Source: Alphaproteobacteria bacterium (GTDB taxonomy: Bacteria; Pseudomonadota; Alphaproteobacteria; UBA9219). Taken from it: a stretch of 64,000 nucleotides of DNA. Positions 5,958 to 25,506 of this stretch are shown one piece after another (the stretch's first letter is position 1; the number at the start of each line of letters is the position of its first letter). The translations under genes were made by a program, and so were the position numbers. The notes below the pieces were generated by a model. That model searched no databases and was not told the origin of the DNA. It worked only from the letters and a program-made list of their open reading frames with translations. The stretch spans positions 21,638-85,637 of the forward strand of contig JAFALY010000038.1 in NCBI GenBank assembly GCA_019233975.1, written 5' to 3'.

Positions 5958-6124
5958 CTAAAGTAAGAAAGTACGGGCGAATCCCGAAAAGATTGGATGA
6001 ATTTTGATTACGCCTGAACAGCTTCAGGCGCAAGCCCGTTCCTGTTCACGCCCCGTTCACGCTTGCCCTGACCGTCTATCCCTGTTAGCCATTGATGATC
6101 CTCATTTATTAATGGAATCGTATC

Positions 6125-6877
6125 ATGGCATCGCAGCAGAGCACCGCCGCCACTCAAGATAACAGCCTTCCCATGTTTTACACAGCGCCACGCCCACTCG
6201 ATCGTGTGCGTGATTTGGACACCAAGCTGTCACGCCCCAACGGTTTCGGCTTTGCGCGCAACACGAATGCCATCCCCCTGCTGATTGACGAATTTCCCGC
6301 CGCCTGCGTCCATTATCCCATCGTCTTTGCCGCAGGACCGGCCCCCATTCCGACCGCCGTCGTTGGCCTGAAGAACAACGAGAACCTGTTGGTGAACAGC
6401 AAGGGTGAATGGCTGAACGGTACCTATCTACCGGCCTATGTGCGCCGCTATCCCTTCATTCTGATGGATGACCCGGTGCAGCAGCAATTTGTTTTGTGCA
6501 TCGACGAAGGCAGCGGCCTGTTCGGCAAGCAGGGTGAATTTCCCCTGTTTGAAAATGGTGAACCTTCGGCTTTCACCAAAAACGCGGTGGAGTTTTGCTC
6601 CACCCTGCGTGCGCAAGGTGAAAACACGGACCAGTTCATCAAAGCCCTGCAGCAGCATGATCTGCTGATGCAAAACGATGCGCAAGTCGATCTGGGTAAC
6701 GGCAACAAGATCCAGCTTTCTGGCTTTCTCGTCATCAATCCGCAAAAATTTGATGCCCTGCCTGATGATGTCGTGCTGGACTGGCGCCGTCGCGGCTGGT
6801 TAGGACTTATCTACGCGCACTTCATCTCGTCCCATCGCTGGCAAGGCCTTGTGAACCTGCTACATAGCCCCACATGA
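6125..6877 (+). CDS. SapC family protein
   Basis: 250 aa. The YVRRYPF motif and overall length match the SapC-related family (PF07277-like). Its TGA overlaps the ATG of the next gene (ATGA). Confidence 0.65.
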   Translation: MASQQSTAATQDNSLPMFYTAPRPLDRVRDLDTKLSRPNGFGFARNTNAIPLLIDEFPAACVHYPIVFAAGPAPIPTAVVGLKNNENLLVNSKGEWLNGTYLPAYVRRYPFILMDDPVQQQFVLCIDEGSGLFGKQGEFPLFENGEPSAFTKNAVEFCSTLRAQGENTDQFIKALQQHDLLMQNDAQVDLGNGNKIQLSGFLVINPQKFDALPDDVVLDWRRRGWLGLIYAHFISSHRWQGLVNLLHSPT

Positions 6878-8700
6878 TGAAAAACATTGTACGCGCTCTG
6901 GGCTTGATCATCGCGCTGACGGCAACGCCGGTATTCGCGCAAACAGCGCAACATGGATTGGCCCTGCATGGCACACCGAGATATCCCGCTGACTTTCAGC
7001 ATTTTGATTATGTCAATCCGAATGCTCCAAAGGGCGGTGATATCCACCTGTCTGCCCTTGGCACCTATGACACATTGAACCCCTTTACCTTAAAGGGGTT
7101 GGCGGCGGATGGGGCAGCGTTGCAATTCGAAACGCTGATGGCAGCGTCGATGGATGAACCGATGAGCCAGTATGGCTGGATCGCCGAAAGTGTGACGGTC
7201 GCGCCGGATCACAGTTGGGTTTCTTACAAAATCCGCCCAACTGCGCGTTTTCATGACGGCAGCCCAATTACCGCCGATGATGTGATCTTTTCCTTTGAAA
7301 CACTGCGTGATAAGGGGCACCCCTTCTATCGCAGTTATTACAAAGACGTCGTGAAAGCGGAAAAGCTGGGTGAACGCGAAGTAAAATTTACATTCCGCGA
7401 CACAACGAACACCGAATTGCCGCTCATCATGGGCCAGTTGCCTGTTCTGTGCAAAAAATTCTGGCAGGGCAAGGATTTCGCCGCAACGACTTTGGATCCC
7501 GTCATGGGCAGCGGCCCATATGAAGTAGACAGCATGACGCCGGGACGCACCATTTCCTATAAACGCGTCAAGGATTGGTGGGCGAAAGACCTGCCCATCA
7601 ACCGTGGGCGCTACAATTTCGATGTCATGCGCTTTGATTATTACCGCGACACAACAGTATCGCTTGAAGCGTTTTTGCGCGGCAGCTACGACTTCCGCCT
7701 AGAAAATGTCGCCAAGAACTGGGCGCTCGGTTACGACACGGATGCCGTACGCAACGGCAACATCGTCAAAGACACAATAACCAACCAACTGCCTGCCGGC
7801 ATGCAGGGGTTTGTTTTCAATATGCGGCGCGATCTTTTCAAAGACCGCCGCGTGCGTGAGGCGCTGAATTACGCGTTTGACTTCGAATGGTCTAACAAGA
7901 ACTTCGCCTATAACGCCTATACACGCACACAAAGCTATTTTGAAAACTCTGAACTTGCGGCACGCGGAATGCCCAGCGCGGATGAGCTAAAACTGCTGGA
8001 ACCCTATCGCAACCAGCTCCCGCCTGAATTGTTTACCGAGCCCTTCAAGCTGCCCACGACGGATGGCAGCGGCGACAACCGCGATAATATGCGCAAAGCC
8101 GCTGAGCTGCTGCGCGAGGCCGGATGGACGCTTAAGAACGGTGTTTTGGTTGATGCGAACGGCAAACCGTTGACGTTTGAAATTATAGACGCGGAGCCCA
8201 TGTTTGAACGCTGGACACAGCCCCTGCTCCGCAATCTTGAACGTCTGGGCATTAAGGCGACATTCCGCATTGTTGATGCCGCACAGTTCCAGAACCGCAT
8301 GGACAATTTTGATTTTGACGTCACGGTTTCGGTTTTCTCGCAATCCCTGTCGCCGGGGAACGAGCAGTTTGATTACTGGTCCTCTACCAAAGCCGATGTG
8401 CATGGCAGCCGCAACCTGATTGGCGTACACGATCCCGTTGTAGATGCATTGCTGGAGAAACTGGTACATGCGACATCACGCGAAGATCTGGTGACCGCCT
8501 GTCACGCGCTCGACCGCGTTTTGCTATGGCAATATTACGTGATCCCGCACTGGCATATCGATTCATTTCGTATTGCCTATTGGAACCGATTTGGCCAACC
8601 CGCCACGCACCCGCCCTATGGCTTGGCCGTTGACGACACCTGGTGGGTTGATACCGCCAAGGCCGCCAAACTTGACGCCCAACACGCACGTGGACAATGA
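6874..8700 (+). CDS. ABC-type substrate-binding protein, family 5 (YejA/MppA-like), periplasmic
   Basis: 608 aa with a signal peptide (MMKNIVRALGLIIALTATPVFAQ), SBP_bac_5-like size and motifs. Its start overlaps the SapC stop and its stop overlaps the next ORF's start. Confidence 0.8.
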   Translation: MMKNIVRALGLIIALTATPVFAQTAQHGLALHGTPRYPADFQHFDYVNPNAPKGGDIHLSALGTYDTLNPFTLKGLAADGAALQFETLMAASMDEPMSQYGWIAESVTVAPDHSWVSYKIRPTARFHDGSPITADDVIFSFETLRDKGHPFYRSYYKDVVKAEKLGEREVKFTFRDTTNTELPLIMGQLPVLCKKFWQGKDFAATTLDPVMGSGPYEVDSMTPGRTISYKRVKDWWAKDLPINRGRYNFDVMRFDYYRDTTVSLEAFLRGSYDFRLENVAKNWALGYDTDAVRNGNIVKDTITNQLPAGMQGFVFNMRRDLFKDRRVREALNYAFDFEWSNKNFAYNAYTRTQSYFENSELAARGMPSADELKLLEPYRNQLPPELFTEPFKLPTTDGSGDNRDNMRKAAELLREAGWTLKNGVLVDANGKPLTFEIIDAEPMFERWTQPLLRNLERLGIKATFRIVDAAQFQNRMDNFDFDVTVSVFSQSLSPGNEQFDYWSSTKADVHGSRNLIGVHDPVVDALLEKLVHATSREDLVTACHALDRVLLWQYYVIPHWHIDSFRIAYWNRFGQPATHPPYGLAVDDTWWVDTAKAAKLDAQHARGQ

Positions 8701-10592
8701 AACTTGATCTTACCGCGATAAAACACAACACCGTCAATTGTATTGATCAATTCAGAACATGGCTTTGTGCGCCCCCCTATGAAGGCGTGCCGTGGATGTG
8801 CTGGCTTTATGTCCTGTTTTGCGGCCTGTATGCCGGTGGTGCGCCGTTTCATGGACAGTTGGCATGGTTTGATGACAATGTGCGCATGGTCCAGATACTG
8901 GAATGGATTAACGGCGTTCATGGCTGGTACGACCACGTCCTGATGCGCGTCAATGCGCCCGAGGGTTTCCACACCATTTGGTCGCGTGTTGTCGATGCCC
9001 CGATTGCCGCCGTGATTATCGCCTTTCAGGGGCTTGTCGGTCAGCGGCAAGCGATTGTGGTCGCCGTCACATTGATACCCATGCTGCAAACGCTGATGCT
9101 GTTTTTCGCAGCTCCCTATTTCGCCGCACCGCTCATCGGGCGCGATAAAGCGCAACTGGTCAATCTGTTCGTTCTCTTTACGCAATGCCTGAACCCCGAT
9201 TATTTCACTTTGTCGGGATTTGAAATGGGCGCGGTCAGCCACCACACCTGGTATATCCTCTTAGGGCTAACGCTGCTGGGCAGCGCCATACGGTTGCTGA
9301 CTGAACCCGGCCGCAAGACAACAGCCATTTTTGTTGCGAGTAACGTAACGCTTCTGCTTGTGGGAATTGAAGCATTTCCGCTTCTGGCACTGGCTGCGTT
9401 CCTTCTGGCGGTCATTACGTGGCAAAGACAGGATGCGATGCTGGCGCGCGCGTCAGCCGTGGCGTTCGGGCTTGTTGCCATTATTACGGCCATCGACCAG
9501 CCCATCAACCACCCACCCGCAGAATGGCTGAATGTCTCGTTCTCTGAACCGTCCATTTTTGGTGCGATCATCACCGCCTGTGCTGCCGTATTTTTTCTGC
9601 TGACGGAACAGATCGTCAAGCGGAAACCCGGCAGCCGCCAATGCTTCGTTATGATGACCCTTCTTGCGGCGGCCATGGGCGGTGCCCTGATCGCCCTGTT
9701 CCCTGAACTGTTAAACGGTGCGGCGGCAGGATTGACACCAGAGGAACGCATGCTGGCCCACCGCGAGCACACAGAAGCGGTCGGCCTCTATGCCGTTGCC
9801 ATCAACACGGTTGATTATGTGCGCCTGATCATGCCGTCGGTTATTGCCTTTATCTGGATGCGGCATCTGGTCCGCAACAGGAAAGGCGCCGAAGAACGCC
9901 CTATCTACATATACTTTTACGGGTTGGTGATTATCACATTCATCTACGCGTCCATTTTCTCACGCCTGGTTTTCTATATGGCGCTAAGCGACAGCGTCGT
10001 TCTGATGCATCTCTGGCTGCATACTGCGGCCAAGATGAAAGACGACCAGAATGCGAGCCTGAAGAAGTTTTTACTGTATGTTTTTTTAGGGCCGCTGTGG
10101 ATGTTGATTGTCCCCGCCGCGAATTACAACAGCGGCTTTGGCGACAAGGTTCTGATGTTCCCCGCCAAAAAGCAATTCGGCAAACAAACCTGTGACATGA
10201 CCGGTATCGCCGAATATCTGCATTTCCATTACAGCAACGACAAAACGATTATGGTGCAGATGTACACGTCGGATAAGTTTCTGTATTGGACAGACCTGAA
10301 AGTCTATTTTCTGGCGAATTTTCCATCCCAGAACAAATTCATCAATGCACGACGGTTTTACATGACAAAAGACGCCGATATAGCGCACACGATTGCGACC
10401 GAAGGCCATGTAGATTTGGTCGCGGTCTGTCAGGATGACGTCAAACTGGGCGCTGATACGGCCTTTGCAAACAGCCTGCTACACAACAAGACATTTGAAC
10501 AACAACTGACGACAGGCGAAATACCGTCATGGCTGAAGCCAGTGCGAATGCAAATGGCTTCGCCCTATTTACTGTTTGAAGTTGTGAAGTAA
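8697..10592 (+). CDS. large polytopic inner-membrane protein of unknown function (about 12-13 TM helices plus a 150-aa C-terminal soluble domain; possible GT-C-type glycosyltransferase)
   Basis: 631 aa with many hydrophobic helices. The first loop carries FDDNVRMVQ, a DD motif resembling GT-C first-loop acidic motifs. It is translationally coupled (ATGA) to the preceding SBP. The ORF itself is secure, but the functional call is speculative. Confidence 0.55.
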   Translation: MKLDLTAIKHNTVNCIDQFRTWLCAPPYEGVPWMCWLYVLFCGLYAGGAPFHGQLAWFDDNVRMVQILEWINGVHGWYDHVLMRVNAPEGFHTIWSRVVDAPIAAVIIAFQGLVGQRQAIVVAVTLIPMLQTLMLFFAAPYFAAPLIGRDKAQLVNLFVLFTQCLNPDYFTLSGFEMGAVSHHTWYILLGLTLLGSAIRLLTEPGRKTTAIFVASNVTLLLVGIEAFPLLALAAFLLAVITWQRQDAMLARASAVAFGLVAIITAIDQPINHPPAEWLNVSFSEPSIFGAIITACAAVFFLLTEQIVKRKPGSRQCFVMMTLLAAAMGGALIALFPELLNGAAAGLTPEERMLAHREHTEAVGLYAVAINTVDYVRLIMPSVIAFIWMRHLVRNRKGAEERPIYIYFYGLVIITFIYASIFSRLVFYMALSDSVVLMHLWLHTAAKMKDDQNASLKKFLLYVFLGPLWMLIVPAANYNSGFGDKVLMFPAKKQFGKQTCDMTGIAEYLHFHYSNDKTIMVQMYTSDKFLYWTDLKVYFLANFPSQNKFINARRFYMTKDADIAHTIATEGHVDLVAVCQDDVKLGADTAFANSLLHNKTFEQQLTTGEIPSWLKPVRMQMASPYLLFEVVK

Positions 10593-10618: not shown

Positions 10619-11038
10619 TTATGCCGCCGCGGCAACCTCAACACAGGCCAGCTTGACCTGTGCGGCCTCAATCGCCTTTTCAAGACGCATACGCTCGGCA
10701 TCCGACTTCGCCAAGGCGATATCGTCATGCAGCTGGGCAAGCGCCTGTACAACCGCCGCGCGATCGATGGATGAAACCGCCACGGCTTCTTCGGCCAAAA
10801 TGGCGCAACGCGTGGCGCTCACTTCCGCAAACCCCCTGGAGACAAACAACCGTTCGGAAATGGTCGTTTCATCGCTTTCGTAAACATTGATAACGCCGGG
10901 GCGCAGCGTCGTAATCATCGGTGCATGGCCAGCCAGAACGCCATAATCCCCCTCACCACCCGGCAAAGTGACCATAACGACCGGCTTGCTGAGCAGCAGC
11001 TTTTCCGGCGAAACAAGTTCCAACTGAAAGGCGGTCAT
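10619..11038 (-). CDS. atpC: F0F1 ATP synthase epsilon subunit
   Basis: 139 aa, MTAFQLELVSPEKLL..LPGGEGDYGVLAGHAPMITTL. Confidence 0.9.
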   Translation of the reverse strand: MTAFQLELVSPEKLLLSKPVVMVTLPGGEGDYGVLAGHAPMITTLRPGVINVYESDETTISERLFVSRGFAEVSATRCAILAEEAVAVSSIDRAAVVQALAQLHDDIALAKSDAERMRLEKAIEAAQVKLACVEVAAAA

Positions 11039-11043
11039 GTTGA

Positions 11044-13378
<2,335 letters not shown>

Positions 13379-13497: not shown

Positions 13498-13818
13498 TTA
13501 CGGATTTTTGGGCAGTTTAAAGCGCAGCCCATCCATTTGCGGGGTCAGCATAATCTGGCAGGCCAGCCTGGAAAGGCGGGTGGGGTGTGAGGCCAGCGCA
13601 AGCGTATCGCTTTCTTCAACCCGTATGGGTGGCAATTGGGCAGACCATAAAGAATCAATGATAACGTGGCAGGTGCTGCAGGCCATGGCCCCATCACACG
13701 CCCCTTCTATCTCAACACCCGCATTGCGGGCGGCAAGCATCAGGGATTGCCCTGTTTCCACGTCCAGCACGCTTTCCCGCCCCTCCCGGTCCGTGACATG
13801 TAAACGGATGGTAGTCAT
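13498..13818 (-). CDS. 2Fe-2S ferredoxin (adrenodoxin/putidaredoxin type)
   Basis: 106 aa with the cysteine ligand pattern CDG.MACSTCHV..(34)..C. Its start overlaps the livM stop (ATGA). Confidence 0.8.
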   Translation of the reverse strand: MTTIRLHVTDREGRESVLDVETGQSLMLAARNAGVEIEGACDGAMACSTCHVIIDSLWSAQLPPIRVEESDTLALASHPTRLSRLACQIMLTPQMDGLRFKLPKNP

Positions 13819-15224
13819 GGCGTTTCCTGAGCCCCGGCCCCCAGTTTGGCAATTGGTTGGCGCGTCGAAGCTAAACCGCCCGGACGCCAGACCATGATGA
13901 TCACCATGCCTGCGCCGAAGGCCAGCATGCGGTATTGATCCAACCCGCGGAAAAGTTCCGGCATGCCGACGATGAATAAAGCCGCCAGTGCAATGCCAAC
14001 CGGGTGACCAATGCCGCCCAGAATGACAATCGCCAGAATGGTCGCAGACTCATTGAAGGTGAAGCTTTCGGGGCTAACGAAGCCCTGACGCGTGGCAAAA
14101 AATGCACCTGCAATCGCCGCGATCATGGCGCTGAGCATATAGGCAGCAAGCTTGATACGCGGCCGGTCGATACCCAGTGAGGCACACGCAATTTCATCTT
14201 CGCGAAACGCTTCCCAGGCACAACCGATTGGCAAGTGGCGCAACCGCACGACAACATAACCAACAATAACCGCGATCAGAAGGATGACGTAATAAAGAAA
14301 CATGACGCGTTGCACGGGGCTGAACTCCACCCCCAGCCATTCGTGAAAGGGCCGCATGCCTTCAGTTGCCTGACGTGCAAATTCAAGGTTGAACAAGGCC
14401 GGACGCGGTATGCCAGAAATACCGTTCGGCCCATGGGTCAGTGATGTCCAGTTAATAAGGACCAGGCGCGTAATTTCGCCAAACCCCAATGTCACCACGG
14501 CAAAATAATCGCCACGCAAACGCAGAACCGGAATGCCAAGCAGCAATGCCGTAACAACGGCGATGACGGCGACAAGCGGCAGCGCGCTCCAGAACCCTAA
14601 TCCAGCATATTGTGCCAGAAGGGCGTAGCCATAGGCGCCTATAGCGTAAAAGCCCGCATAGCCGAGGTCGAGCAATCCGGCAAAACCAACCGTGATATTC
14701 AACCCCCAGGCCAGCACGATATAGGTCATGACCATAATACCAACGTCGAGCAGATAGCGGCTGGAAAATGGCAGGAACGGCATGACAATGACAAAGGCAA
14801 ACAGAAACGCGCCGAGCGTGTTGAAGTTTGTCAGGCGCCGTTTAGCCGTCGTTATAAGGGGCGGCAGCAAACCTGCTAGATGAACGGGATGTTTTTCTAA
14901 CCATATCAGTAACGCGCGCAGCGCCAAAGCATAGCCACCGGCAACAGCCGCGCAGCGCAAAAACGCCGTTGGCCATGTTATGAATAAGGCACCGGTTCCG
15001 GCCATCAGTCCCGCCGCAAAAACTACCGGTAAGGCACCAGCAGCCAAAGCCGCAAGGCCTGCCCGACCAAGCAGAATAAGCGCAGCAGCAATAGCGGTAT
15101 CCGCCCAGCGCCATTCCAATGCCATGCTGCCCACCACTTCGCCCGTATGTACACCGGCGAGCGGCAGAAGCAGAACAAAAGCCAGCAACGCCACAAGGAA
15201 GGATTCTTTCAACCCGCGCAGCAT
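13815..15224 (-). CDS. livM: branched-chain amino acid ABC transporter permease LivM-like
   Basis: 469 aa with the LivM signature LRLRGDYFAVVTLGFGEITRL and an N-terminal hydrophobic extension. Its start overlaps the livH stop. Confidence 0.85.
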   Translation of the reverse strand: MLRGLKESFLVALLAFVLLLPLAGVHTGEVVGSMALEWRWADTAIAAALILLGRAGLAALAAGALPVVFAAGLMAGTGALFITWPTAFLRCAAVAGGYALALRALLIWLEKHPVHLAGLLPPLITTAKRRLTNFNTLGAFLFAFVIVMPFLPFSSRYLLDVGIMVMTYIVLAWGLNITVGFAGLLDLGYAGFYAIGAYGYALLAQYAGLGFWSALPLVAVIAVVTALLLGIPVLRLRGDYFAVVTLGFGEITRLVLINWTSLTHGPNGISGIPRPALFNLEFARQATEGMRPFHEWLGVEFSPVQRVMFLYYVILLIAVIVGYVVVRLRHLPIGCAWEAFREDEIACASLGIDRPRIKLAAYMLSAMIAAIAGAFFATRQGFVSPESFTFNESATILAIVILGGIGHPVGIALAALFIVGMPELFRGLDQYRMLAFGAGMVIIMVWRPGGLASTRQPIAKLGAGAQETP

Positions 15225-16162
15225 CAGACTTTCTCCACCGACGGGCGGCCCAGCAGACCATTAGGTCGAACCAACAACACAAGCATAAGCAACACAAAAA
15301 CGGCGACATCCTTATATTGCGCATTCACATAGGTGGCCCACAGGCTTTCCACCACACCGATAATCAGACCGCCCAACATGGCGCCGGGCAGCGAGCCGAT
15401 GCCACCCAGAACCGCAGCGGTAAAGGCCTTCATGCCCGCCAGAAAGCCCATATAGAAATCGACCACACCGTAATACAACGTGACCATAAAACCAGCGATG
15501 GCGGCCAACACGGCGCCCAGAACAAAGGTCAGAGAGATGGCACGGTTCACGCGTATGCCGCACAGGGCAGCCATGGTTTGGTCTTGTTCACACGCTCGTT
15601 GCGCGCGACCAAATGGCGTGGCGTGCACCAAGGCCGTCACCGCAGACATTAAAACCAGCGTCAGGACAAAGATGGTGATTTGCAGATAGGAAACAGAAAC
15701 CACAAAACCATCCGCGCGGTGTGACAGTTCGATTGTTCCCTGCAAGACAGGTGCAAGCGTCTTCACACGCGCACCCTGCAACAACTGCACATAGTTTTGC
15801 AGAAAGACGGACATGCCAATCGCCGATATCAACGGCGCCATGCGCCCCGCCTTGCGCAGCGGCTTATAGGCAATACGCTCAATCGACCATCCATAAAGGC
15901 CCGTAATCACTGCCGTAGTCAGCAGCACAATCGCCAACACAAACGGCAAGGACGTCACACCGATGGCGGTCAGGACCACATAGCTGATGACTGTGATAAA
16001 GGCGCCGATCATGTAAATCTCGCCATGCGCGAAATTGATCATGCCGATGATGCCGTAGACCATGGTGTACCCGATGGCGATCAGCCCATAAACGGCCCCC
16101 AGGGTCAAACCATTGATCAGTTGCTGCAGAAAATAATCCACGCCCGCCACTATGTTATGCAA
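15224..16162 (-). CDS. livH: branched-chain amino acid ABC transporter permease LivH-like
   Basis: 312 aa, LINGLTLGAVYGLIAIGYTMVYGIIGMINFAHGE. Confidence 0.9.
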   Translation of the reverse strand: MHNIVAGVDYFLQQLINGLTLGAVYGLIAIGYTMVYGIIGMINFAHGEIYMIGAFITVISYVVLTAIGVTSLPFVLAIVLLTTAVITGLYGWSIERIAYKPLRKAGRMAPLISAIGMSVFLQNYVQLLQGARVKTLAPVLQGTIELSHRADGFVVSVSYLQITIFVLTLVLMSAVTALVHATPFGRAQRACEQDQTMAALCGIRVNRAISLTFVLGAVLAAIAGFMVTLYYGVVDFYMGFLAGMKAFTAAVLGGIGSLPGAMLGGLIIGVVESLWATYVNAQYKDVAVFVLLMLVLLVRPNGLLGRPSVEKV

Positions 16163-16188
16163 TGAATCGGATAGTTCACTCTACCCGA

Positions 16189-16692
16189 TCAAGGATTCTT
16201 GGCAAGGGTTGCGCCCTTGGCCCCGCATAAGGGTAGACGTGACATGCCCGCGTCGTTCATTGTTTTGACCTGGGCGCCCAGCTCTGCCGCCGTGGCTTTA
16301 TACAAACGCGCAACTTCCTGCCGGTACTGTCCGCAAAATCCCGGTGCCGATAAATTGGCGATTTTCTGGCCATATTCGTTAGCCAATTGCGTGTGCAACT
16401 TATCCAGACGCGCCGTACCGTTGCCACTGAAATGACTGTTATAAAAAGCAGTCATGGTTCCTTCGGCATCATGCAGGGCGTCGACATGCGCGTTGGTAAA
16501 GGCCGTATAACCGGCAATAAGGTCCTGCCCGTCTTCATCTTGTTTGCAGGTAATGGCCACGACCATCAGTTCGGTATGCAGGCGCAATAGTTGCTCAGCA
16601 TCCTGTTCAGCGGGCGTGTAGCATTGTTTTTGCCCCGCCCAAGCGGGCACTGGCAACAGCAGAAAAATAAGAAGAAACAAGCGCAGCATCAT
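16189..16692 (-). CDS. hypothetical secreted protein (signal peptide, no recognisable family)
   Basis: 167 aa with N-terminal MMLRLFLLIFLLLPVPAWA. Its start overlaps the stop of the upstream DMT transporter (ATGA). Confidence 0.5.
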   Translation of the reverse strand: MMLRLFLLIFLLLPVPAWAGQKQCYTPAEQDAEQLLRLHTELMVVAITCKQDEDGQDLIAGYTAFTNAHVDALHDAEGTMTAFYNSHFSGNGTARLDKLHTQLANEYGQKIANLSAPGFCGQYRQEVARLYKATAAELGAQVKTMNDAGMSRLPLCGAKGATLAKNP

Positions 16693-17570
16693 GTAGCCCT
16701 CTGTCCCGCTGCCTGTACAGGTTTTGGTTTGCGCACCACAAAAGTGGTTCCGGTAATAATCAGGGCAATGCTGATAATCACATGAAGCCCGATCTGTTCA
16801 TGCAGAAAAAGTGCGCCCCACAGTGTTGCAAAAACCGGGATCAGGAATGTGACTGTCAACGTAGACGCAGGGCCCAAGGCTTTCACCAGATTGAAGTAAA
16901 TCAGGAAGGCAAAACCACTGCACAATAGCCCCAAGCCTGCCAGCGCGCCCCATGCCGTCGGGTCAGGAACTTCACGCACGGGCACGAAAAACAAAGCTGG
17001 CACCAAAACAATGGCACCGGCCAGCAGGCTGCCGCCGGAATTCAGGACGGGGTCCACCGCGGTCATGCCGCGCGCATAATTGGTCGCAATGCCATAGCAC
17101 AAGGCCGCCGTCAGGCCGCAGGCCGCCGCCCATAGCGAGTCAGACTGTAAAAACAGATCATCGCCAAAAAATAAAGTCACAACGCCGGCCACGCCAAGCA
17201 CAAGCCCCGCAAGCCTGCGATAAGTGAATTTCTCCACCCCCAACACCGCGCCGATCAGGAATCCCCATATGGGCGCCGTAGAGTTCAAAATGGCGGATTG
17301 GGCGGCAGAAAGTTTAAGGGCGCAGATAGCAAACAAAACAAAGGGCAGCACGCAATTAAGAAGGCCAAAAATAAAAAACTGCTTCCAGTGCCTGCCCATG
17401 CCCTTGATATCCCGCTTCAGCCACAAGCCAACACCAAGCATGCATAGGGATCCCAACAACAACCGCCCCTCAACTAGATAGACAGGACCAAATACATGTG
17501 TCGCCATGCGCATAAACAGGAACGACCCGCCCCAAATAGCCGCCAGCAGCAACAATTGAGCAATATTCAT
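16689..17570 (-). CDS. DMT superfamily transporter (EamA-like, 10 TM)
   Basis: 293 aa with two EamA-like repeats and a hydrophobic profile. Confidence 0.8.
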   Translation of the reverse strand: MNIAQLLLLAAIWGGSFLFMRMATHVFGPVYLVEGRLLLGSLCMLGVGLWLKRDIKGMGRHWKQFFIFGLLNCVLPFVLFAICALKLSAAQSAILNSTAPIWGFLIGAVLGVEKFTYRRLAGLVLGVAGVVTLFFGDDLFLQSDSLWAAACGLTAALCYGIATNYARGMTAVDPVLNSGGSLLAGAIVLVPALFFVPVREVPDPTAWGALAGLGLLCSGFAFLIYFNLVKALGPASTLTVTFLIPVFATLWGALFLHEQIGLHVIISIALIITGTTFVVRKPKPVQAAGQRAT

Positions 17571-17597: not shown

Positions 17598-19142
17598 TTA
17601 TTCCCACTCAATCGTGCCGGGCGGTTTACTGGTGACGTCATAGGTCACACGATTGATGCCGGGGACTTCGTTGATGATACGCGTCGCGACTTGCGCCAAA
17701 AACGCATGTTCGAACGGATAGGATTCAGCCGTCATGCCGTCAACCGAAGTCACGGCGCGCAGCGCCAGCACATGGTCGTAAGAACGGCCATCCCCCATAA
17801 CGCCGACCGAGCGCACAGGCAACAATACCGCGAAAGCCTGCCATATCTCGTCGTAAAGACCCGCCTTGCGGATTTCATCGAGATAGACCACATCCGCCTT
17901 ACGCAGGATGGCAAGCTTCTCTTCGGTAATATCGCCAAGAACGCGTATGGCAAGCCCCGGTCCCGGGAAAGGGTGGCGGCCAACAAAGCTTTCCGGCAGC
18001 CCCAATTCACGGCCCAGCGCGCGCACTTCATCCTTGAACAATTCGCGCAACGGCTCAACCAGTTTAAGGTTCATGCGCTCAGGCAAACCGCCGACATTGT
18101 GGTGGGATTTTATCGTGACACTCGGCCCGCCGGTAAAGGAAACGCTCTCGATTACGTCCGGATACAGCGTGCCCTGCGCCAGAAATTGCACATCCCTGAT
18201 TTTATGCGCTTCGGCATCGAACACTTCGATAAATAACCTGCCGATTGTCTTGCGTTTCACTTCCGGGTCGGTCACGCCATCCAGCGCTGACAGAAATGTT
18301 TCACCCGCATCAACGGCGACCAGCGGGATATTGTAATGCGAACGGAACAGGTCGACCACCTGTTGCGCCTCGCCCTGACGCATCAGGCCCGTATCCACAA
18401 AGATACAAGTCAGTTGCTCGCCGATCGCTTCGTGGATCAGAACGGCTGCGACGGCGCTGTCTACTCCGCCGGACAGGCCGCAGATAACCTTGCCTTTGCC
18501 GACCTGAGCGCGGATTTTGGCAATCTCATTTTCACGGAAAGCGGCCATGCTCCAGTCGCTGCCGCATCCGCAGATTTTGTGCACAAAGTGCGAGAATAAT
18601 TTGGCCCCGTCCAGCGTATGCACAACCTCGGGGTGGAACATGGTGCCGTAGAAATGGCGCTTTTCATCGACGATACAGGCAAAGGGCGCGCCTTCACTGG
18701 TCGCCGTCACGCGGAACCCCTGCGGCAATTGCGTGACGCGGTCTCCATGGCTCATCCACACTTGTTGCTTGGAGCCGGCGGGCCAGATGTCGCTGTAAAA
18801 ATCGCACGGCTCGCGCACATCAATCATCGCCTTGCCGAATTCACGCGCGTGACCGCCTTCGACCTTGCCGCCCAACTGCATGCACATGGTCTGCTGACCG
18901 TAACAGATACCCAAAACCGGCACGCCCAGTTCGAACACAATCTGCGGCGCGCGGGGACTACCCTCATCCAGGGTCGAGCACGGGCCGCCGGACAGAATGA
19001 TGCCCTTAGGGTTAAAATCTTTGATTTGTTCATTCGTGCGGTTAAAGGGCTGTATTTCACAGTAAACGCCGGCTTCGCGTACACGGCGGGCGATCAATTG
19101 CGTAACTTGAGAACCGAAATCCAGAATAAGAATTTTGTCCAT
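17598..19142 (-). CDS. guaA: GMP synthase (glutamine-hydrolysing)
   Basis: 514 aa, [23 protein letters not shown].., ending ..TIEWE. Confidence 0.95.
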
Positions 19143-23690: not shown

Positions 23691-25064
23691 TTATGCAGCT
23701 TGGCGGAAGCAGACTTGGCGAACGGCCTTCACAATATCATCGACATTGGGAAGCGCCAGCTTTTCCAGATTGGCGGCATAGGGCAGCGGAACATCCGCGC
23801 CGCATACACGCACAACCGGCGCATCCAGATAGTCGAAAGCGTGTTCCATCATTTGCGCGGCAAGTTCGGAGCCGATGCCAGCGAAAGGCCAGCTTTCTTC
23901 GGCCGATACCAGACGGTTCGTCTTCTTGACGCTTTCGACGATCGTGGCCGTATCCAGCGGGCGAATGGAGCGCAGGTTGATGACTTCGGCGCTGATGCCT
24001 TCGGCAGCCAGCTTTTCCGCTGCTTCCATCGCAAAGCCGACCATGCGCGAAAACGCGGTGATGGTCACATCCGTACCGGCGCGCATAACCTTTGCCTTGC
24101 CGATCGGCAGCACAAAATCGGCATCGTCCGGCACGTCAAAGCTTTGGCCGTACATCATTTCGTTTTCAAGGCAGATGACCGGATTCTGGTCACGAATGGC
24201 GGCCTTCATCAAGCCCTTGGCATCGGCCGAGTCATAAGGCGCGATGACCTTGAGGCCCGGCACATGTGCATACCAGCTGGCGTAGCATTGCGAATGCTGC
24301 GCGCCAACACGGGCCGCGGCGCCGTTCGGGCCACGGAATACAATGGGGCAACCCATCTGACCGCCGGACATGTACAATGTCTTGGCGGCAGAGTTGATGA
24401 TCTGGTCAATCGCCTGCATCGCGAAGTTCATGGTCATGAATTCGATGATCGGACGCAAACCCCCGAACGCCGCACCAACGCCCAGACCCGCAAAACCCAT
24501 TTCCGTGATGGGACTGTCGATCACGCGCTTCGCGCCGAATTCATCCAGCAAGCCCTGGCTGACTTTGTAAGCGCCCTGATACTGCGCGACTTCTTCGCCC
24601 AGCAGGAACACGTTCGGATCGTTCCGCATTTCTTCCGCCATGGCTTCGCGCAACGCCTCGCGTACTGTCAGCGTCTTAAAGCTGCTGTACTGCTTTTCTT
24701 CCACGCTGGCGGCGACAGGTGCCACAACAGACAAAGCCGGACGCGCTGCATCAGACGCGGCGGCAGGCGCAGGCGCTGCAACCGCTGTCGTTTTAACGGC
24801 ATTCAAGGCATCGGCCCCTTCACCTTCTTCCAGAAGGATGGCGATCGGCGCGTTCACCTGAACATTTTCGGTGCCGGCTGCGACCAGAATTTTACCAAGG
24901 GTGCCTTCATCCACCGCTTCGACTTCCATCGTCGCCTTGTCGGTTTCAATTTCGGCCAGAACCTGACCGGACTTTACCGTGTCGCCTTCTTTCTTCAGCC
25001 AACGGGCCAGCTTGCCTTCTGTCATTGTGGGCGACAGGGCCGGCATAAGAATTTCGATGGTCAT
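23691..25064 (-). CDS. pdhB: pyruvate dehydrogenase E1 beta subunit with N-terminal lipoyl domain (alphaproteobacterial type)
   Basis: A lipoyl domain ([17 protein letters not shown]) is followed by a transketolase-like E1 beta domain. The likely start is the ATG at 25064; an alternative upstream start lies at 25094. Confidence 0.88.
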
Positions 25065-25086
25065 CGCTTTCTCCTGATCAATATCG

Positions 25087-25506
25087 TTAGCCAAAGCGCT
25101 TCATACGCATAGCCAGAGATGGTTTGGGATTCAACCCGGTTTTGCGCGAAGAGCGATCTTCACGCGTCATAACAAAAGCCAGATAATCACCGGCATGAAT
25201 AACTTCGTTTTCATCCATCGGTACCAGACCGGACACCGTGCCGTAACTGACTGACTGAACGGGATAAACGCCACTCTGCGTCCATAGTTCGACAACCGTC
25301 TGGCCGGGGCCGACATTATCCCCCTCTTCAACCAAACAGCTGTGCAGGCAGGCAACGTCCTGGTCACGGGATTCCGTCAGATGGTTCTGACCGTACTCGA
25401 TAACCTGCCCCAGACCTTCGGCGGCATCGCCATACGCGATTTCCCACCTTTTTCCAGTCAAAACGGGCGCAGCCTCGACCAGCGGGGCCTTAATGATTTG
25501 CATCAT
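25087..25506 (-). CDS. hypothetical small protein with a lipoyl/biotinyl-like barrel-sandwich hybrid signature that lacks the modifiable lysine
   Basis: 139 aa. [56 protein letters not shown] mirrors the AccB/lipoyl pattern (V.EGD.V..GQ..h.hEAMKh..h.A..sG.V..h.V..G..V..G..L..h), but the hairpin Lys is replaced by W-T-Q. It is wedged between pdhA and pdhB. Confidence 0.4.

Follow-up and report, generated by a model that had tools for sequence, protein, structure and literature searches.

An orphan LivH/LivM permease pair conserved in a Micavibrio-related clade is probably half of a conventional amino-acid importer

The 64-kb stretch of contig JAFALY010000038.1 analysed here (the window), from an alphaproteobacterial genome, carries two genes, livH and livM, for permeases of the HAAT family of ATP-binding cassette (ABC) importers. 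The five open reading frames (ORFs) that the initial annotation had grouped around this pair are all present on the minus strand, where it had placed them. Reading along that strand, they are a gene for a 293-aa EamA/DMT transporter (16689..17570), whose two EamA repeats (Pfam, 1.2e-36) assign it to the DMT transporters; the gene for a secreted 167-aa protein, p167 (16189..16692), with a Sec signal peptide and without a Pfam match; livH (15224..16162; BPD_transp_2, 1.4e-46); livM (13815..15224; BPD_transp_2, 3.7e-48); and fdx (13498..13818), which encodes a 106-aa [2Fe-2S] ferredoxin of the adrenodoxin or mitochondrial type (Fer2). The same-strand row runs on past these five genes, a fact absent from the initial annotation. 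Its upstream neighbour is guaA (GMP synthase, 17598..19142, recognised by Pfam domains and tblastn synteny), preceded by genes for the E1alpha, E1beta and E2 subunits of pyruvate dehydrogenase (PDH), a GNAT acetyltransferase, lpd and lipA, all on the minus strand. Downstream lies atpG-atpD-atpC (10619..13378), for the F1 gamma, beta and epsilon subunits, a conserved neighbour on that side.

All junctions in this row were read from the sequence. The genes had been described as chained by 4-bp overlaps, and such overlaps (ATGA in both cases) do join EamA to p167 and livM to fdx, but livH and livM share a single base pair (TGATG). The remaining junctions are gaps of 27 bp between guaA and EamA, 119 bp between fdx and atpG, and 26-47 bp between p167 and livH, the last being set by the livH start codon chosen. 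The gene caller starts livH at 16150, and the true start is likely a GTG at 16150 or 16141, aligned with MDYFLQQ of the Azospirillum protein. Scans of 10.5-19.4 kb for promoter and terminator consensus sequences gave counts at chance level and were uninformative on transcription units. Rfam found no RNA element in 12.5-19.5 kb.

Both permease ORFs are intact and full length. LivM scores 436 bits against the NCBIfam LivM model, over its cut-off of 366, and LivH scores 360.9 bits against the LivH model, just below the equivalog cut-off of 379. The window LivH is 53.5% identical to that of E. coli, as close as the Azospirillum LivH is (53.6%), and the corresponding identities for the LivM core are 54.8% and 57.0%. 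For the N-terminally extended LivM (469 aa), the initial annotation had proposed a check for extra domains. We found none: its N-terminal region matches DUF3382 weakly, with 17.9 bits where the cut-off is 28.9, and can be aligned to that of canonical LivM proteins, the LivM proteins of clade relatives carry this domain (PF11862), and the same region is found in the LivM of E. coli (425 aa) and Azospirillum (496 aa).

In ABC importers, an EAA-like cytoplasmic loop of the permease is the docking site for the ATPase subunits. A sequence search of solved structures with LivH and LivM gave no match, and this motif was therefore used in place of structure-mapped ATPase contacts. The LivM alignment of the 93 sequences of the orphan clade described below has 193 columns that are at least 90% conserved. 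Within the motif, PLGRAWEAxREDEIACxxLGI, most positions are at least 90% conserved and all at least 60%, and it closely resembles the motif of the canonical sister clade and of E. coli. Distances of LivM to the E. coli protein, over all sequences, are 0.715+/-0.034 in the orphan clade and 0.701+/-0.021 in the canonical clade. By these distances, loss of linkage to the ATPase genes is not followed by faster LivM evolution. With two LivH/LivM-type BPD_transp_2 permeases and the coupling motif in place, the orphan permeases point, at the sequence level, to a conventional importer half rather than to a new function.

What the pair lacks at this locus is the remainder of an importer. No ABC ATPase emerged from a six-frame search of the 64-kb window for Walker A and LSGGQ motifs, and tblastn of the window with LivG, LivF, LivJ and LivK of E. 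coli and Azospirillum and with the substrate-binding protein (SBP) of the Azospirillum operon found none of them. Pfam scans, which covered most of the other large window ORFs, likewise revealed neither an ABC ATPase nor a type-I binding protein. We also inspected 10 kb of the 164-kb metagenome contig on each side, giving 84 kb in all. The sole ABC ATPase in these additional 20 kb, and thus the sole LivG/F-like ATPase in the 84 kb, is LptB (369 bits; cut-off 240); it belongs to an lptC-lptA-lptB-(GNAT)-rpoN-hpf-ptsN cluster at 13047-18360 of L043 (L numbers denote fetched loci), just left of and across the window start. LivG and LivF are encoded with the permeases neither in the window and its flanks nor in any related locus, and a Peripla_BP_6 protein is absent from the window and flanks but occurs two genes upstream in one relative, L062. 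The description of livH and livM as an orphan pair thus stands, the genes themselves being confirmed by Pfam and NCBIfam and no livG, livF or SBP gene being seen in the window or its 20 kb of flanks.

Relatives of the locus were gathered by scans for the p167 family in GTDB species genomes and JGI metagenomes, together with loci of LivM homologues. After removal of duplicates there were 70 distinct p167 loci, 63 of them informative. In 34 of the 63, livH and livM directly follow p167; in the other 29 they do not. No livG or livF was found downstream of livM in any of the 19 loci with visible sequence there. A LivM tree divides into two sister groups, one containing Azospirillum and Arenibaculum, the other (n=93) the window. 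All visible contexts in the latter, including those of the basal members P0095 and P0101, are p167-livH-livM without livGF. Where present, livHM always stands directly after p167, flanked either by guaA and atpG or by an unrelated upstream gene and ubiA, and guaA lies upstream of p167 in 24 of the 34 livHM-bearing relatives. In 16 of the 29 livHM-less loci, atpG lies a short way downstream of p167 (immediately after it in those inspected), and some of the metagenome-assembled genomes concerned carry a Micavibrio label. The p167 tree is poorly resolved and scatters the livHM-less loci among the livHM-bearing ones, and its basal members are the same as in the LivM tree. From this scatter and the shared basal members, the pair looks ancestral to the clade and repeatedly lost. 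The initial annotation had allowed that livGFK might adjoin these genes in close relatives and betray an assembly or rearrangement artefact. None does, because the orphan arrangement is common to close and distant relatives; an assembly artefact was rejected, as the arrangement recurs in dozens of independent assemblies.

One relative bears on the whereabouts of the partner genes. At 6214-7377 (+), L062, a JGI metagenome relative whose guaA and LivH are 87% and 77% identical to those of the window, encodes a 387-aa Peripla_BP_6 protein directly upstream of guaA-p167-livH. This protein shares 51% identity with the SBP of the Azospirillum operon, much the same figure as for LivM. An SBP gene of this kind beside the locus means that the clade is able to keep a cognate-type SBP in a scattered position, and it fits, by sequence likeness, partner genes that are scattered rather than lost. 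Three other matches to ABC ATPases in the related loci were set aside as LivG/F candidates: that of L015 is an MsbA-like exporter, and those of L007 and L047 are just 25-30% identical to LivG/F, much less than orthologues should show, the former having two tandem ABC domains.

We consider it probable that livH and livM encode part of a conventional HAAT importer, whose permease genes are stably unlinked from the ATPase and SBP genes across the Micavibrio-related clade, with the ferredoxin gene as a neighbour and EamA as a recent insertion. On this account, LivH and LivM would be the membrane half of an ordinary amino-acid importer (TC 3.A.1.4), and their genes would have come down by vertical descent within a Micavibrio-related clade of uncultured Alphaproteobacteria. 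In the clade ancestor, the permease genes would have been separated from livG, livF and a livJ-type gene and would have settled downstream of p167, in most genomes between guaA and atpGDC. A periplasmic LivJ-type protein would deliver the amino acid to LivHM, and LivG and LivF encoded elsewhere in the genome would power import via the conserved coupling helices. The ferredoxin would be an independent, general-purpose electron carrier of the adrenodoxin type whose gene fills the space between livM and atpG, and the 4-bp overlap of this gene with livM would reflect local compaction in the window lineage. We infer that LivG, LivF and LivJ genes lie elsewhere in the window genome, and it is most likely that transport still follows the standard scheme. 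What survives of the initial interpretation is an orphan pair, now seen to be shared by relatives; a conserved five-gene unit, a consistent ferredoxin coupling, an extra LivM domain and an unconventional function are not supported.

Several observations weigh against this account. LivG, LivF and LivJ were not found for the window genome within the 84 kb of its one contig. The DNA fetched, about 1.07 Mb drawn mostly from related loci and under 1% of the genomes concerned, contained no LivG/F, and the L062 protein was its single LivJ-type SBP. Absence of the partner genes in the Micavibrio-related group is conceivable, since the cultured relative Micavibrio aeruginosavorus is reported to be without any known amino-acid transporter (PMC3189940). 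In addition, fdx follows livM in 17 of 19 loci and occurs at none of the 29 livHM-less ones. Finally, the window genome itself deviates from its clade: livM, livH and above all fdx of its lineage are more diverged (0.66, 0.75 and 0.47, against 0.75, 0.81 and 0.64 in sister lineages) while the divergence of guaA is equal in both, and the window LivM carries R335C in the GRAWEA part of the coupling motif, at a position where Arg is at least 90% conserved in the clade. Because of this extra divergence and the substitution, some relaxation in the window genome is possible. A literature search on orphan livH/livM yielded nothing relevant.

A first alternative is that LivHM has no dedicated LivG, LivF or LivJ and draws on an ATPase borrowed from or shared with another system, an LptB-like nucleotide-binding domain for instance, possibly with p167 as a new extracytoplasmic partner. 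The failure to see LivG/F in any related locus, LptB as the only such domain on the visible contig, and the report on Micavibrio all agree with it. So does the position of p167, since p167-livH-livM is the most stable linkage at the locus, persisting with guaA or another gene upstream and atpG or ubiA downstream, and the gap between p167 and livH in relatives is often 0-50 bp. LptB, however, has its own dedicated partners, LptF and LptG, which counts against its being the ATPase in question, and the unchanged rate and coupling motif of LivHM, together with the LivJ-type SBP of L062, argue for standard partners.

The properties of p167 also speak against a role as partner. It has a Sec-type signal peptide cleaved between MMLRLFLLIFLLLPVPAWA and GQ, and its family alignments contain four invariant Cys. 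A first word-based search with p167 alone gave 2 homologues and a profile search was needed to recover the family. Word search then counts 298 homologues, and representative clusters number 942 (E<=1e-3); even among its distant members, none has a Pfam match. The AlphaFold2 model is all-alpha, with six helices after the signal-peptide helix (pLDDT 91, pTM 0.81), and comparison with the PDB returned no significant fold match (best E 2.6, TM <=0.34). As modelled, p167 is unlike a substrate-binding protein, being a small helical bundle that resembles no known SBP fold. Moreover, p167 is kept in the 29 loci from which livHM is missing, and thus has a function of its own. Weighing both sides, we regard a borrowed ATPase as unlikely. 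The broader version, in which LivHM has long been active across an order-level clade without its own LivG, LivF and LivJ, using a borrowed ATPase and perhaps p167, and in which the ferredoxin was gained and lost together with it, we hold to be a shade more doubtful still.

A second alternative ties the ferredoxin functionally to LivHM, in that transport might be under redox control or the substrate might have to be reduced. The protein keeps all four Cys ligands in the pattern C41-x5-C47-x2-C50-x36-C87, and its best PDB relatives are FDX2, Yah1, Etp1, FdVI, adrenodoxin and putidaredoxin. It falls short of the ISC equivalog (TIGR02007, fdx_isc; 50.4 bits against a cut-off of 132.1), and no isc genes lie nearby. 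The 4-bp translational overlap with livM was taken by the initial annotation as a sign of an unconventional module, and it recurs in L002 and possibly, if the start is GTG, in L003; the occurrence of fdx with livHM across loci and the faster joint divergence of livH, livM and fdx in the window lineage would suit the same idea. In other relatives, however, the gap between livM and fdx is about 20-650 bp, two genes intervene in L038 and one opposite-strand gene in each of L041 and L042, and no ferredoxin follows livM in L037 and L015. Since the spacing varies, genes intervene and fdx is sometimes absent, the translational coupling is a local feature and not a property of a module; this agrees with what the initial annotation had named as weakening its reading, a ferredoxin in a transcription unit of its own. 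That livHM and fdx come and go together is also expected from deletion of a contiguous block in related lineages. The livHM-less locus L032 (2566-3927, +) encodes a 104-aa Fer2 ferredoxin, 36% identical to that of the window, immediately after a 341-aa thioredoxin reductase-like flavoprotein (Pyr_redox_2), in what looks like a reductase-ferredoxin pair; a related ferredoxin thus pairs with a flavoprotein reductase. To our knowledge, no ABC importer needs a ferredoxin. Judging from gene order, the ferredoxin is probably a positional neighbour only, and we consider a functional tie improbable.

Least credible is that livHM is a decaying remnant in the window genome, heading for the loss seen in Micavibrio-like relatives: the extra divergence against an even guaA, R335C and the repeated losses in the clade would accord with decay, but livH and livM remain intact and full length with strong family scores, the ferredoxin retains its cluster ligands, and tight translational coupling is maintained.

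No EamA homologue was found in the related loci, so that the gene is known only from the window genome, and on this comparison it is a recent insertion specific to that genome and outside the conserved unit. With EamA unique to the window and the ferredoxin inconsistently coupled, the five genes do not form one conserved module.

Some further features of the region deserve mention. This clade has a split F1 ATP synthase operon, in which no atpH-atpA precedes atpG-atpD-atpC; neither atpH nor atpA was found in the 64-kb window, and in L013 (13961-16147) atpH-atpA stand alone with no atpG after them. At 6113-10592 (+), a SapC-family gene and a gene for a 631-aa membrane protein without a Pfam match enclose one for a 608-aa binding protein of the SBP_bac_5 peptide type. 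With no ABC permease or ATPase gene nearby, this protein is the window's second orphan ABC component. In the PDH cluster (23691-25506, -), E1beta has an N-terminal lipoyl domain, and a 139-aa unannotated ORF lies between E1alpha and E1beta.

If the conventional importer is the right account, it corrects an over-interpretation, in that a ferredoxin overlap found in a single genome does not amount to a new transport module, and it implies that a permease pair can remain stably orphan throughout a clade. For the Micavibrio-like predators, a LivHM importer seems to have been present in the common ancestor and lost later in several lineages, a pattern into which cultured Micavibrio, reported without amino-acid transporters, fits. 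Should the partner genes instead be absent genome-wide, this would be a rare natural case for studying how ABC permeases may function with non-cognate partners. Independently of either outcome, p167 represents a widespread unannotated secreted family whose confidently predicted fold matches no solved structure.

In the E. coli LivJ/LivK-LivHMGF system, a HAAT member (TC 3.A.1.4) to which the identities given above refer, the BPD_transp_2 domains, the N-terminal region of LivM (DUF3382, weak here) and the EAA-like coupling motif all have their counterparts in the window. Unlike the window, where only livH-livM is found, flanked by p167 and the ferredoxin gene, E. coli has livK-livH-livM-livG-livF in one operon, with livJ nearby. 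Azospirillum humicireducens represents the sister clade in LivM, and the window LivH and LivM are 64% and 51% identical to its proteins; its locus (one was fetched) is complete, livH-livM-livG-livF-DUF6867-SBP, whereas the window clade is without the ATPase, DUF6867 and SBP genes there. The ferredoxin resembles FDX2, Yah1, Rhodobacter capsulatus FdVI and putidaredoxin in length (about 103-121 aa), in its Cys pattern and in PDB matches of 4e-21 to 1e-14; unlike the Fdx of ISC operons, it is not the equivalog (50 bits against 132). A parallel in organisation is the N-I transporter (NatABCDE) of Anabaena sp. PCC 7120, a HAAT importer that works as one transporter although its five genes lie scattered across the genome (PMC4500139). 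That system is cyanobacterial, with natC and natA adjacent and natD alone, whereas the permease genes of the window clade stay together; its scattered organisation is nevertheless the one that we propose for the window clade.

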